Part shown: one piece after another, positions 11,016 to 18,952 of the stretch
Position numbering within the stretch: position 1 is the first letter of the stretch
Layout: each line of letters begins with the position of its first letter
DNA from: Thermoanaerobaculia bacterium
Lineage (GTDB): Bacteria; Acidobacteriota; Thermoanaerobaculia; UBA5066
Assembly: GCA_038245905.1 (NCBI GenBank)
Contig: JBBRRY010000040.1
Coordinates: 1-27,560, forward strand
Direction of reading: 5' to 3'
DNA: 27,560 nt
Translations under genes and position numbers: made by a program
The notes under the pieces: model-generated
Told to the model about the DNA's origin: nothing
The model's input: only the letters and a program-made list of their open reading frames with translations
Database searches by the model: none

Positions 11016-13685
11016 ATGCTCGGAAAGAACTTCGAACCCGCCTCGTTCGAGATGCGCTGGTACAAGGCGCAGGAGGACGCCGGGTTCTTCCGCCCGGAGG
11101 CGGCCGCGAAGGACGCGAAGCCCTTCACGATCGTCATCCCGCCTCCCAACGTCACCGGCCGGCTCCACGTCGGGCACGCTCTCGGGCGCACCCTCGAAGA
11201 CGTGCTCTGCCGCTGGCGGAGGATGCAAGGCCGCGCGGTGCTCTGGGTGCCCGGCGTCGACCACGCCGGCATCGCGACGCAGATGGTCGTCGAGCGGGAT
11301 CTCAAGGAGCGCACCGGGAAGAGCCGCCACGACATCGGACGCGAAGCCTTCCTCGTGCTCTGCCGCGAATGGGCCGGGGCGCGGCGCGGCGACATCCTGA
11401 ACCAGATCCGGCGTCTTGGCTCGTCGTGCGATTTCTCGCGCGTCTACTACACCCTCGACGAGCCGCGCTCGAAGGCGGTCCGTCACGTCTTCACGACTCT
11501 CTACCACGAAGGCCTCGCCTACCGCGCCGAGCGGATGGTGAACTGGTGCCCGAGCTGCGCCACGGTGCTTTCGGATCTCGAGGTCAACCACGTCGAGAGC
11601 TCGGGTCATCTCTACTCGATCGCGTACCCGCTGGAAGGGGCGCCGGGCGAGCTCGTCGTCGCCACGACGCGGCCGGAGACGATGCTCGGAGACACCGCGC
11701 TCGCCGTGCATCCCGACGACGAGCGCTACGCGGGGCTCGACGGGAAGCGGGTGAAGCTGCCTCTCACGGGCCGCACCATCCCGGTGATCTCGGACTCCTT
11801 CGTGGACCGGCAGTTCGGCACGGGTGTCGTGAAGGTTACGCCCGCGCACGATCCGAACGACTTCGAAGCGGGGAAGCGGAATGGGCTCGAGTCGATCGTC
11901 GTGATCGGCTTCGACGGGAAGATGACCGCGGCCGCGGGCGCCGCGTACGCCGGTCTCGATCGCTTCGAGGCGCGCAAGAAGGTCCTGCGCGACCTTGACG
12001 CCGAAGGCCTCCGCCGCGGCGAAAAGAGCCACGTCATCCCTCTCGCGCGCTGCCAGCGCTGCGACACGGTCGTCGAGCCGCTCGTCTCGCTCCAGTGGTT
12101 TGTGAAGGCAGCGCCCCTCGCGGCGAGGGCCGTCGCCGCGACGGACGCGGGCGAGCCGCGCTTCGTGCCCGAGCTATGGAAGAAGACCTACGACGAGTGG
12201 ATGCGGAATATCCGCGACTGGTGCGTCTCGCGGCAGCTCTGGTGGGGCCACGAGATTCCCGCCTGGTACTGTCCGGATGGCCATGTCACCGTGCCGAAGC
12301 CGGGAGCGGGCGATCCTGTTGCGTGTGCGACGTGCGCCGCGGGGAACCTCGTGCGCGACCCCGACGTCTTCGACACCTGGTTCTCGTCCTGGCTCATGCC
12401 GCTCTCGGTTCTCGGCTGGCCGGAAAAGACCCCGGACTTCGAGCGCTTCTACCCGACGAGCGTCCTCGTCACCGGGTTCGACATCCTGTTCTTCTGGGTC
12501 GCCCGGATGATCATGGCGGGCACGACGTTCGACGGCCGCGCGCCCTTCGCCGACGTCGTCCTGCACGGCCTCGTCCGCGACGAGAAGGGCCAGAAGATGT
12601 CGAAAACGAAGGGCAACGTCGTCGACCCGCTCGAGATGTGCGACGAGTTCGGCGCGGACGCGGTGCGGTTCACGCTCGCGGTGCTTTCGGGCACCGGCCG
12701 CGACTTGCCGTTCGGCAAGACGCGTGTTGCGGGGTACCGCGCCTTCGCGACGAAGGTCTGGAACGCCGCGCGCTTCGCGCTGCAGATGCTCGAGGACGGA
12801 GACGGCGGCACATCGGTCCCGCCTCACGCGATCGATTTCGCGTCTCTCGGCACTGTGGACCGCTGGATTCTCGCGCGCCTGTCCAAGGCGACAGCGGACG
12901 TGAATGCGGCGCTCGAAGCGTACCGCTTCGACGAGGCGGCGAATGCGCTCTACCAGTTTTTCTGGTCCGACTTCTGCGACGGGTACGTCGAGATGGTTAA
13001 GCCCGCCCTGCGGGGCGCGGAAGTCCCGGAGGGGGAGAAAGAGAAGACGCGGGGCGTCCTCACGCGCGTCCTGCTCGACTCTCTCGCGCTCCTGCACCCG
13101 TTCATGCCGTTCGTCTCCTGCGAGATCCGCGAGGCCTTGAACGGGGACGGTCTCCGCCTCGCCATGACGAAGTTCCCGGAACCGAATGCGGAATGGAAGG
13201 ACGATGGTGCTACTGAAGTCATCGTGCTCCTGAGAGCAATCGTGACGCGAGTCCGCAATCTCCGCGCCGAACGCGGCCTCCCGCAGACCGAGGTGCTCCG
13301 GCTGGGCATCGAGCTGCCGGCTGGACCCCTTTCGAAGGAAATGCGGCGTCTCGTTCCTCTCCTGAGCCATCTCGCGCGTCTCAGCGCGGTGGAGATTTCT
13401 TCGAGTGTGAATTGGCCGGGAGCTCATCGCGACGTCGTCGCGGACGCCGGGATCGTCGTGCAGCTACCGAAGCAGGAGATTTCCTCCGAGGACGAAGCGA
13501 AGATCCGCAAGGAGATCGAGAAGCTGCAGGCCGAGGCGGAGAAGATCCGGGCGCGCCTCGCGGATTCCAGCTTCCTCGCGCGCGCACCCGCGGCCGTCGT
13601 CGAGAGAACGAAGCAACAGCTCGAAGAACTCTCCGAGCGTCAGAAGCGTCTCTCCGGAAATCTCGTGGAGACTACGGGCGAATGA
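11016..13685 (+). CDS. valS: Valine--tRNA ligase
   Basis: PPPNVTGRLHVGH (HIGH), DHAGIATQ, ATTRPET, DWCVSRQLWWGH, KMSKT and C-terminal coiled coil. Confidence 0.98.
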   Translation: MLGKNFEPASFEMRWYKAQEDAGFFRPEAAAKDAKPFTIVIPPPNVTGRLHVGHALGRTLEDVLCRWRRMQGRAVLWVPGVDHAGIATQMVVERDLKERTGKSRHDIGREAFLVLCREWAGARRGDILNQIRRLGSSCDFSRVYYTLDEPRSKAVRHVFTTLYHEGLAYRAERMVNWCPSCATVLSDLEVNHVESSGHLYSIAYPLEGAPGELVVATTRPETMLGDTALAVHPDDERYAGLDGKRVKLPLTGRTIPVISDSFVDRQFGTGVVKVTPAHDPNDFEAGKRNGLESIVVIGFDGKMTAAAGAAYAGLDRFEARKKVLRDLDAEGLRRGEKSHVIPLARCQRCDTVVEPLVSLQWFVKAAPLAARAVAATDAGEPRFVPELWKKTYDEWMRNIRDWCVSRQLWWGHEIPAWYCPDGHVTVPKPGAGDPVACATCAAGNLVRDPDVFDTWFSSWLMPLSVLGWPEKTPDFERFYPTSVLVTGFDILFFWVARMIMAGTTFDGRAPFADVVLHGLVRDEKGQKMSKTKGNVVDPLEMCDEFGADAVRFTLAVLSGTGRDLPFGKTRVAGYRAFATKVWNAARFALQMLEDGDGGTSVPPHAIDFASLGTVDRWILARLSKATADVNAALEAYRFDEAANALYQFFWSDFCDGYVEMVKPALRGAEVPEGEKEKTRGVLTRVLLDSLALLHPFMPFVSCEIREALNGDGLRLAMTKFPEPNAEWKDDGATEVIVLLRAIVTRVRNLRAERGLPQTEVLRLGIELPAGPLSKEMRRLVPLLSHLARLSAVEISSSVNWPGAHRDVVADAGIVVQLPKQEISSEDEAKIRKEIEKLQAEAEKIRARLADSSFLARAPAAVVERTKQQLEELSERQKRLSGNLVETTGE
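13390..13411 (+). repeat. Intragenic repeat copy TGGAGATTTCTTCGAGTGTGAA (in valS)
   Basis: 21/22 identical to 15795-15816. Confidence 0.8.

Positions 13686-18952: not shown

Follow-up and report, generated by a model that had tools for sequence, protein, structure and literature searches.

The window considered here, a stretch of 27,560 nucleotides, is contig JBBRRY010000040.1 (C40) of the genome of a Thermoanaerobaculia bacterium (GCA_038245905.1, designated G000; 3,797,265 bp in 113 contigs, 67.8% GC, 96% complete), and its predicted genes, which agree with Pfam, include valS, a biotin ligase family gene, an RlmD/TrmA-type methyltransferase gene (rlmD), comEC, miaA and others. Within these genes and between them lie nine strong copies, located with a position weight matrix (PWM), of an asymmetric DNA motif that is written across protein-coding sequence in every reading frame, commonly as head-to-head pairs. 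A first-pass annotation of the window had noticed a recurrent AT-rich word, RATYTCTTC, inside unrelated housekeeping genes on both strands; the recurrent motif is real, but it was wrongly delimited, the true unit being ~21-33 nt long and including a variable base.

Definition of the motif and constraint on DNA

Genes of G000 were called with a codon-likelihood script (3181 genes, 93.4% coding, GC content of third codon positions (GC3) ~0.86), and 10-mers were ranked genome-wide by over-representation relative to an order-3 Markov model. Words of one motif take all of the first 28 places, led by TTTCTTAGAA (109 seen, 0.54 expected, z 147); ATTTCTTCGA, the form given in the first-pass annotation, ranks far lower (84 versus 15.2 in the whole genome), and alignment of its 84 copies brought out conserved flanks and purine-rich surroundings. 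Aligned copies and 10-mer ranking together define the consensus as an asymmetric [GA-rich tract]-GAT(T)TTCTT[A/C/T]GAAGGTGAAGAG, or, with the 3' flank, [GA-rich tract]-GAT(T)-TTCTT[A/C/T]GAA-GGTGAAGAG(gg). The core TTCTTNGAA occurs 447 times genome-wide with C (161), A (149), T (119) or G (18) at the variable base, and RATYTCTTC occurs 344 times. A 33-nt log-odds matrix with a threshold of at least 16 bits gave 713 raw matches, compared with 32 in a genome simulated with a Markov-4 model, and 706 copies after overlaps were merged. The simulation replaced a reversed-matrix control, which is unusable with a core that is a near-mirror repeat, GAAGATT(T/C)TTAGAAG, and the matrix was used instead of an nhmmer motif profile, which is insensitive at this length (17 matches at E <= 0.001).

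Counts in coding sequence (CDS) were compared with the means of 60 shuffles of synonymous codons inside genes, a null that is conservative because amino-acid sequences shaped by the motif itself are retained. The excess is evident for ATTTCTTCGA (70 versus 18), TTCTTAGAA (95 versus 2.5), TTCTTTGAA (104 versus 11), TTCTTCGAA (134 versus 52) and the 14-mer GATTTCTTHGAAGG (54 versus 1.7), and TTCTTGGAA, which has G at the variable base, stands at background (13 versus 9.6). The codon-aware count that the first-pass annotation had named as a check of enrichment came out in favor of its RATYTCTTC (303 in CDS versus a shuffle mean of 172), as did the count in the window, where the eight occurrences (about eight by its manual scan) compare with 1.22 expected by dinucleotide shuffle and were reached in none of 100 shuffles.

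The same consensus is found in all six reading frames and in the intergenic DNA of G000, and the choice of variable base depends on the stop codons that it would create. In the two frames where A would produce TAG or, on the opposite strand, TAA, A was counted 3 times and once, and C/T 28/22 and 45/34 times; the frame that T would interrupt with TGA has no T and 35 occurrences of A. TTCTTCGAA is the stop-free spelling, and therefore the frames that read EISS and FEEI stay open. G is avoided even where it is harmless, TTC-CAA-GAA occurring 0 times in its frame, and the Ser codon at 16174 is TCA, TCT or TCG but in none of 12 species TCC, though TCC suits GC3. Across the 12 species, A or T occupies 52% (173/334) of third codon positions in motif columns versus 11.5% (1521/13234) elsewhere. 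The presence of one consensus in six frames and intergenic DNA, the stop-dependent variable base, the A/T third positions and the recoded SSFFQ(G/A)N peptide described below support the proposal of the first-pass annotation that the constraint acts on DNA rather than protein.

The repeats from which that proposal had been drawn are mostly genuine: 13390-13411 in valS and 15795-15816 in the RlmD gene are identical at 21 of 22 positions, 14855-14871 matches all 17 nt of 15796-15812 in reverse complement, and 14935-14946 is a 12-nt inverted copy. The list of copies was incomplete, those at 7450, 15951, 16174 and 16255 having been missed. AATCTCTTC does occur at 67-75 and 84-92, but as the flanks of one copy centred at 77-85 rather than as two separate copies. 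Likewise GAATCTCTTCGA is present at 15984-15995 (inverted) and at 17614-17625 (plus strand), but at neither place does it reach 10 bits; the supposed copy in comEC is a chance resemblance, so the presence of comEC in the window adds nothing to a link with DNA uptake. All copies and look-alikes are collected in Table 1. Besides comEC (16586-18952), the window has at 2018-3553 (minus strand) a gene for a protein with an MshEN domain, a domain of the ATPases of type IV pili and type II secretion.

Table 1. Positions of motif copies and of two look-alike words in the window
Positions	Strand	Feature	Core, variant, frame or remark	PWM score (bits)
65..97	-	Intergenic copy just 3' of ORF 137-643(-)	core 77-85 = TTCTTAGAG	20.2
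7359..7391	+	Weak left arm in biotin carboxylase-type gene 7006-8493	core 7371-7379	12.5
7438..7470	-	Strong copy in biotin carboxylase-type gene	core 7450-7458, T variant	33.6
13385..13417	+	valS copy, unpaired	core 13397-13405, C variant, frame V-E-I-S-S-S-V	21.6
13469..13501	+	Degenerate tandem copy in valS	GGAGATTTCCTCCGAGG	10.6
14845..14877	-	Copy in hypothetical ORF 14611-15165	frame P-F-E-E-I-S	22.4
14923..14955	-	Copy in hypothetical ORF 14611-15165	frame P-F-E-E-I-E	22.7
15790..15822	+	Copy in RlmD/TrmA-family methyltransferase gene, left arm of convergent pair	core 15802-15810, C variant	32.7
15939..15971	-	Right arm of rlmD pair, over SSFFQGN	core 15951-15959	24.5
16162..16194	-	rlmD-like gene copy	core 16174-16182, frame L-S-K-N-L	25.2
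16243..16275	-	rlmD-like gene copy	core 16255-16263, TTCTGCGAA form	23.7
15984..15995	-	Inverted GAATCTCTTCGA, not a copy	synonymous sites differ among species	no match >=10
17614..17625	+	GAATCTCTTCGA in comEC, not a copy	relatives have GAACCTCTTCGA or GCGCTCTTCGA	no match >=10

Inheritance, pairing and placement of the copies

Statements about distribution cover the genomes that were searched, among which the unpublished G025 enters only as a zero count and a match row. G000 has 76 occurrences of TTTCTTAGAAGG, and every one of the 24 other species genomes of the same genus, one of soil and sediment bacteria, has 21-210 (reversed-word controls 0-3), as opposed to 0 in 16 genomes from other genera of the order. 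Among 121 genomes from across the class, an excess of TTTCTTAGAA is confined to this genus, where 8/8 genomes have 63-174 copies and controls give 1-14; in four further genera of the family the count is 0-1, and matches in low-GC genomes are at or under their controls. The single outlier, G119 (14 versus 1 in the control), owes its count to a different ~190-bp repeat. That repeat, TGTCATCCCGAGC ... CATAAACACTGGGAGTTTCTTAGAAGC (loci L201-L208; other family), lies on many contigs, several times near contig ends, and has only a 10-mer in common with the motif. Word ranking in 400 kb of a sister genus (G086) gave no analogous dispersed word, and 400 kb of G000 is enough to recover the motif. A 'dialect' of the motif in G086 was rejected, since the top words there are CXXCH haem-binding repeats of one multihaem cytochrome c cluster (C1 ~1,040,800-1,045,900, L055), which has 28 TGCCACAAG haem-site words (C-H-K) in 5 kb.

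The valS-to-rlmD region was recovered, with 70-84% identity, from all 28 other genomes of the genus, and 12 full-length loci (12 species) were aligned. In 11-12 of the 12 species, five of the seven strong copies in this region have a score of at least 16 bits at the corresponding position: the valS copy at 13385..13417 (12/12), the two arms of the rlmD pair at 15790..15822 (11/12, with the T variant in 6/12) and 15939..15971 (11/12), and the copies at 16162..16194, where the variable base is the third position of the Ser codon, and 16243..16275 (12/12 each). Identity to G000 is 84.7% in motif columns, 78.6% at other coding positions and 62.6% at other third positions. The degenerate tandem copy in valS is closer to the consensus in several relatives (GAGATTTCTTCTGAAGA), and the weak arm at 7359..7391 is the convergent partner of the copy at 7450, 79 bp away. 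The copy at 14845..14877 is found in just two of the 12 species; seven others (L002, L010-L014, L017) have in its place a degenerate plus-strand copy, recognized by eye and scoring below 0 bits, that would pair with the copy at 14935, which itself keeps the core TTCTTCGAA on the same strand in 11/12 species and reaches at least 16 bits in 5/12. The ORF in which these last copies lie (14611-15165; 184 residues, no Pfam family) separates the biotin-ligase-family gene from rlmD; its C-terminal half is conserved, and its middle differs greatly among species, with deletions, a 33-nt insert and motif arms gained or lost.

The RlmD proteins of four sister genera align across all four copy sites of this gene with indels of 0-7 residues. 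Alignment of valS and rlmD orthologues had been suggested by the first-pass annotation as a way to see whether the motif comes and goes in variable loops; the copy at 15790 does lie in a variable loop, in which sister genera differ by 0-3 residues in the displayed block and by 5-7 in a wider stretch, but the arm at 15951 lies over an invariant peptide. In sister genera this peptide, SSFFQ(G/A)N, is encoded as TTC TTC CAG GGA/GCG/GCA AAC/AAT, and in this genus (four species: G000, L002, L010, L014) SSFFQGN is encoded as TTC TTT CAA GGA AAT, so that the arm is built from synonymous AT-ending codons. The alignment of RlmD and the recoding of SSFFQ(G/A)N indicate, therefore, that substitutions on the stem lineage of the genus created the signal, which was then kept. 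The motif arose by point substitution in pre-existing sequence, mostly that of conserved cytoplasmic housekeeping genes, and its copies have been held at the same places at the DNA level since the genus arose.

Neighboring copies are arranged predominantly head to head. Among exact cores 51-150 bp apart there are 61 convergent, 1 divergent and 10 tandem neighbors, and the matrix copies form 209 convergent pairs spaced no more than 320 bp apart, which account for 418 of the 706 copies (59%), compared with 16 divergent and 64 tandem neighbors within 300 bp. Convergent spacing is mostly 60-150 bp (median 114 bp), with no clear 3-bp periodicity (p ~0.08) and a 9-bp signal whose p value of 0.003 is uncorrected over the ten periods tested. 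The purine tracts of a pair point outward, and between the arms are 30-130 nt of ordinary GC-rich sequence, which pairs do not share and which is native to the host gene; in 155 of the 209 pairs a single gene holds both arms. In three Ser/Thr kinase paralogues, for example, the arms encode DFLEGEE and LYSFEEI and the sequence between them reads as ordinary kinase-domain sequence. Paired arms resemble each other no more than re-paired arms do (similarity 16.68 versus 16.59 over 49 non-core positions, z 0.21), and the energy of the duplex that they could form is comparable (-36.7 versus -37.4 kcal/mol for 65 pairs); therefore each arm fits the global consensus independently.

Most copies (557/706, 79%) are in CDS, and the 149 intergenic copies amount to 21% of copies in 6.6% of the DNA. 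Unpaired copies, 288 in all, include 104 in the sense and 113 in the antisense direction of the host gene, and positions along genes are uniform; intergenic pairs are not biased to divergent, convergent or co-directional gaps, i.e., no preference for promoters or terminators was seen. Orientation in G000 is not linked to GC skew or to gene strand. In the near-complete genome G011, the A variant occurs in regional strand runs (cumulative-skew p 0.006) and the C/T variants trend in the opposite direction, which is interpreted here as a consequence of gene orientation combined with stop avoidance. Replication polarity was rejected, as none is present once all variants are pooled, and orientation mapping likewise gave no sign of the ori/ter or strand polarity of KOPS/matS type that the first-pass annotation had brought up.

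The copies are clumped, with 33 of 154 20-kb bins empty and a variance of 13.1 versus a mean of 3.9, in a manner unrelated to GC3; 299 of 3181 genes carry copies, and the density is ~0.19 per kb. All 59 genes with at least three copies were examined (2/20 and 12/38 without a family at the thresholds used), and they include genes for IleRS, AlaRS, DnaE, XseA, RarA, LysA, DapB, HisD, TrpC/F, MurE and MurF, as well as Alr, FabD, NuoG, SucB, a CCA-adding-type enzyme, PrmA, RsmE, TrmJ, RimO, Sui1/YciH and RlmD. A set of 40 length-matched genes without any copy within 2 kb (6/40 without a family) is mostly for envelope, transport, protease, cytochrome and signalling functions, and also holds RpoD, PolA and NuoL. 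Translation and RNA-modification genes make up 9/59 carriers versus 0/40 controls, a comparison that is indicative only, having been sorted post hoc with different libraries.

Readings of the motif

The interpretation preferred here, held tentatively and a little short of an even call, is that the motif is a genus-specific asymmetric signal, probably a recognition site on double-stranded DNA for a putative factor acting on head-to-head pairs. Such a sequence-specific factor, most likely a protein, would read each arm separately on double-stranded DNA, and its usual target would be two sites that face each other across 60-150 bp of ordinary DNA. In function, the motif may be likened to the sets of sites that nucleoid, topology or DNA-processing proteins use throughout a chromosome, and not to the target of a per-gene regulator. 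A context-free reading of double-stranded DNA is suggested because unpaired copies have no strand bias, orientation has no link to GC skew or gene strand, and no type of gap is preferred.

Several observations weigh against the interpretation of the motif as a recognition site. No protein that reads it was found among the candidates tried: neither CodY nor the Y1 transposase (PF01797, RAYT) was found in the 96%-complete genome G000, the winged-helix region of LexA is invariant between this genus and nine sister genera that lack the motif, and the ComEA-like protein with two HHH domains is not genus-specific either. A rigid protein bridge would predict a helical 10.5-bp periodicity of spacing, which is not clear (p ~0.06). 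The covariation test applied to the pairs is low-powered, since two consensus-like arms are complementary regardless. The carriers are broad cytoplasmic housekeeping genes and not a narrow regulon, so no process is implied by them, and the data do not tell site-by-site selection apart from an ongoing drive, for example through gene conversion or biased uptake. Two further explanations were rejected: a CodY-like roadblock regulator, no CodY having been found in G000, and clusters of rare codons for co-translational folding, for which neither a single 21-nt sequence in six frames nor intergenic copies nor pairing would be required.

The main rival, which is unlikely, is that the motif is a self-DNA signal resembling the DNA uptake sequences (DUS) of Neisseriaceae and the uptake signal sequences (USS) of Pasteurellaceae: a competence receptor would prefer DNA with the motif, and biased uptake followed by recombination would spread and maintain it. 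Like DUS and USS, the motif is a strictly lineage-specific word with hundreds of copies in both orientations without polarity, accommodated in tolerated frames inside genes, where copies were made by substitution with a bias of reading frame; its copies are positionally stable between related species, occur in excess in intergenic DNA (21% of copies in 6.6% of DNA), and are carried by vertically inherited housekeeping genes. Competence genes are encoded as well, namely those for ComEC, DprA, two secretins and ComEA-like proteins (presence only). DUS and USS, however, have a density of about one per kb and USS are evenly spread, whereas the motif is at least ~5 times sparser, clumped in 9% of genes and missing from whole 20-kb bins. 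It is also longer and asymmetric with a purine tract, and the strict convergent pairing of 59% of copies at 60-150 bp around native sequence has no counterpart among DUS and USS. That the competence genes are not specific to this genus, as seen with the ComEA-like protein, also tells against this reading.

One ComEA-like gene, missed by the gene caller, carries the motif itself. It lies on the minus strand of G000 contig C12 (35123-35857; L200:1620-2357) and encodes a secreted protein of 245 residues with two ComEA-like HHH_3 domains joined by a Ser/Lys-rich linker; one motif copy lies over the start codon and a second encodes the linker (SPSKKSSSSSSS). The protein has full-length relatives in two sister genera and, being common to them, was rejected as the reader.

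A structure of RNA or single-stranded DNA, in which every transcript across a pair could fold into a long stem and thereby govern the stability or processing of the mRNA, is improbable. A convergent pair does read alike in transcripts of both strands (5' purine arm, 3' pyrimidine arm; this is in part an argument from reasoning), any two arms can form a duplex of ~-37 kcal/mol, and the fold of the rlmD pair is somewhat more stable than that of shuffles (z -1.93), its arms being partly paired. Compensatory covariation is absent within pairs, though, and the arms of one canonical pair are unpaired in its minimum-energy fold (z +0.23). Moreover, 288 of 706 copies are unpaired yet conserved (the valS copy in 12/12 species) and favor neither strand of the host genes, copies in contexts that are not transcribed look no different, and Rfam 15 has no match in the window at the gathering score.

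Hardly different in its low probability is the proposal that the copies are remnants of non-autonomous mobile elements, such as miniature inverted-repeat transposable elements (MITE) or Rickettsia palindromic elements (RPE), with inverted ends inserted in frame. The unit of arms and interior is MITE-sized (~100-200 bp) with inverted arms, and, as with RPE, a DNA repeat is translated inside essential genes; the GA/CT tracts encode insertion-like low-complexity loops (a Ser-rich kinase loop and the ComEA-like linker), and indels near the copies in ORF 14611-15165 vary between species. Yet there is no common interior, the sequence between arms being that of the host gene; RlmD has the same length as in sister genera; one of its arms consists of synonymous changes in an invariant motif; and arms within a pair are no more alike than arms across pairs. 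The AT-rich third positions persist genus-wide, unlike those of decaying fossils. No longer repeat or transposase-bearing element with the motif and no Y1 transposase was found, nor was an autonomous parent with motif ends among long repeats or convergent pairs 320-6000 bp apart, where it should be considered that insertion sequence elements are often unassembled in such genomes. For the copies examined, an origin as mobile elements is largely refuted.

It is very unlikely that the motif is an SOS-type operator family, either read by LexA or derived from a LexA operator. The only close divergent double copy of the genome is at the lexA promoter, a pair or a single copy lies upstream of recA in five of six species of the genus (the sixth, G017, has a degenerate remnant there), and the reverse complement of the motif has TTCTAAGAAAAT in common with the palindrome upstream of lexA in relatives; two promoters of many are a post-hoc observation, however. 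LexA operators are palindromic dimer sites and the motif is asymmetric, a LexA regulon does not resemble a set of ~700 asymmetric sites most of which are inside genes, the palindrome CCKWAT-N3-ATWAGG occurs 0 times in G000, and the printed upstream regions of uvrA, uvrB, ruvB, uvrD and recN candidates found by signature hold no copies, to which must be added the invariant winged-helix region of LexA. The recA upstream regions of 17 sister-genus genomes, as printed, hold no copy, and a search of the literature on LexA and the SOS box in Acidobacteria yielded nothing on this lineage. In the lexA promoter region (G000 contig C5 70372-70539; L151 ~1372-1539) the divergent cores are 17 nt apart. 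Across the family, AT-rich palindromes CCKWAT-N3-ATWAGG precede lexA and may be the family's SOS box. At recA, a convergent pair lies between conserved upstream elements and TATAAT (contig C4 ~89900-90100; L026 ~15900-16100; L176).

Just as remote from the evidence are intragenic invertons or excision cassettes, in which the arms would be recombinase sites and the bracketed segment would be flipped or removed in part of the population: inverted repeats with one consensus do flank short segments, like the target sets of invertases, but pairs occur in single-copy essential genes (those for IleRS, DnaE and AlaRS, and valS), and the interior of the window pair has the same orientation in 12/12 species. 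In assembled contigs of four public runs, none of the 15 joints listed out of 182 is at the pairs in L026, and one contig of a public run, perhaps of the source sample, spans two pairs unchanged, both of these comparisons being blind to rare inversion or excision.

Comparison with known dispersed words and significance

Three other classes of dispersed sequence deserve comparison. Repetitive extragenic palindromic (REP) sequences and bacterial interspersed mosaic elements (BIME), or the REPIN associated with RAYT, are likewise inverted pairs of a short conserved unit dispersed over the chromosome. REP and BIME serve in E. coli as sites for gyrase or IHF. They differ from the motif, which is 79% intragenic, does not form a palindromic hairpin, has long and variable spacing, and is accompanied by no Y1/RAYT gene that could be found. 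The highly iterated palindrome HIP1 (GCGATCGC) of cyanobacteria is hyper-abundant in coding sequence in all frames, is conserved at orthologous sites, and is of debated function. The motif resembles HIP1 as a hyper-abundant word imposed on coding DNA in all frames and kept at orthologous sites, but HIP1 is a palindromic octamer without pairing geometry, whereas the motif is a paired, asymmetric unit of 21-33 nt that is rich in A and T although the genome has 68% GC. The FtsK-orienting polar sequences (KOPS), the SpoIIIE recognition sequences (SRS) and the Chi sites of RecBCD/AddAB are purine-rich words over-represented in core genes, and the GA-rich flanks of the motif recall their GAAGAAG- or GAGAAGGG-type words; unlike them, the motif has no replichore or strand polarity when variants are pooled, and it is far longer.

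Full-text literature searches gave no description of the motif: none of the papers listed mentions Thermoanaerobaculia in connection with such repeats, and among the matches listed its 9-mers appear only in unrelated eukaryotic, viral and primer contexts, which fits the suggestion of the first-pass annotation that this could be an undescribed dispersed chromosomal signal. It is an even call whether the motif represents a new kind of chromosomal signal, a word written by substitution as head-to-head pairs for a genus-specific putative machine without a described analogue. One possibility is that it may be a self-DNA mark that steers recombination, repair, topology control or uptake to core genes.

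The word has a visible cost, namely rare AT-ending codons and altered residues in aminoacyl-tRNA synthetases, the alpha subunit of DNA polymerase III and enzymes of cell-wall and amino-acid biosynthesis; this cost is borne genus-wide, and therefore something reads the word. The motif is a natural example of a DNA code laid over a protein code, with a built-in control in the stop-avoiding variable base. For practical purposes, it is a diagnostic marker of the genus in metagenomes, and its arms are exact probes with which the reader could be pulled down. Such a reader would add a new component to the biology of bacterial chromosomes, or would belong to the first uptake-signal-like system outside Proteobacteria.

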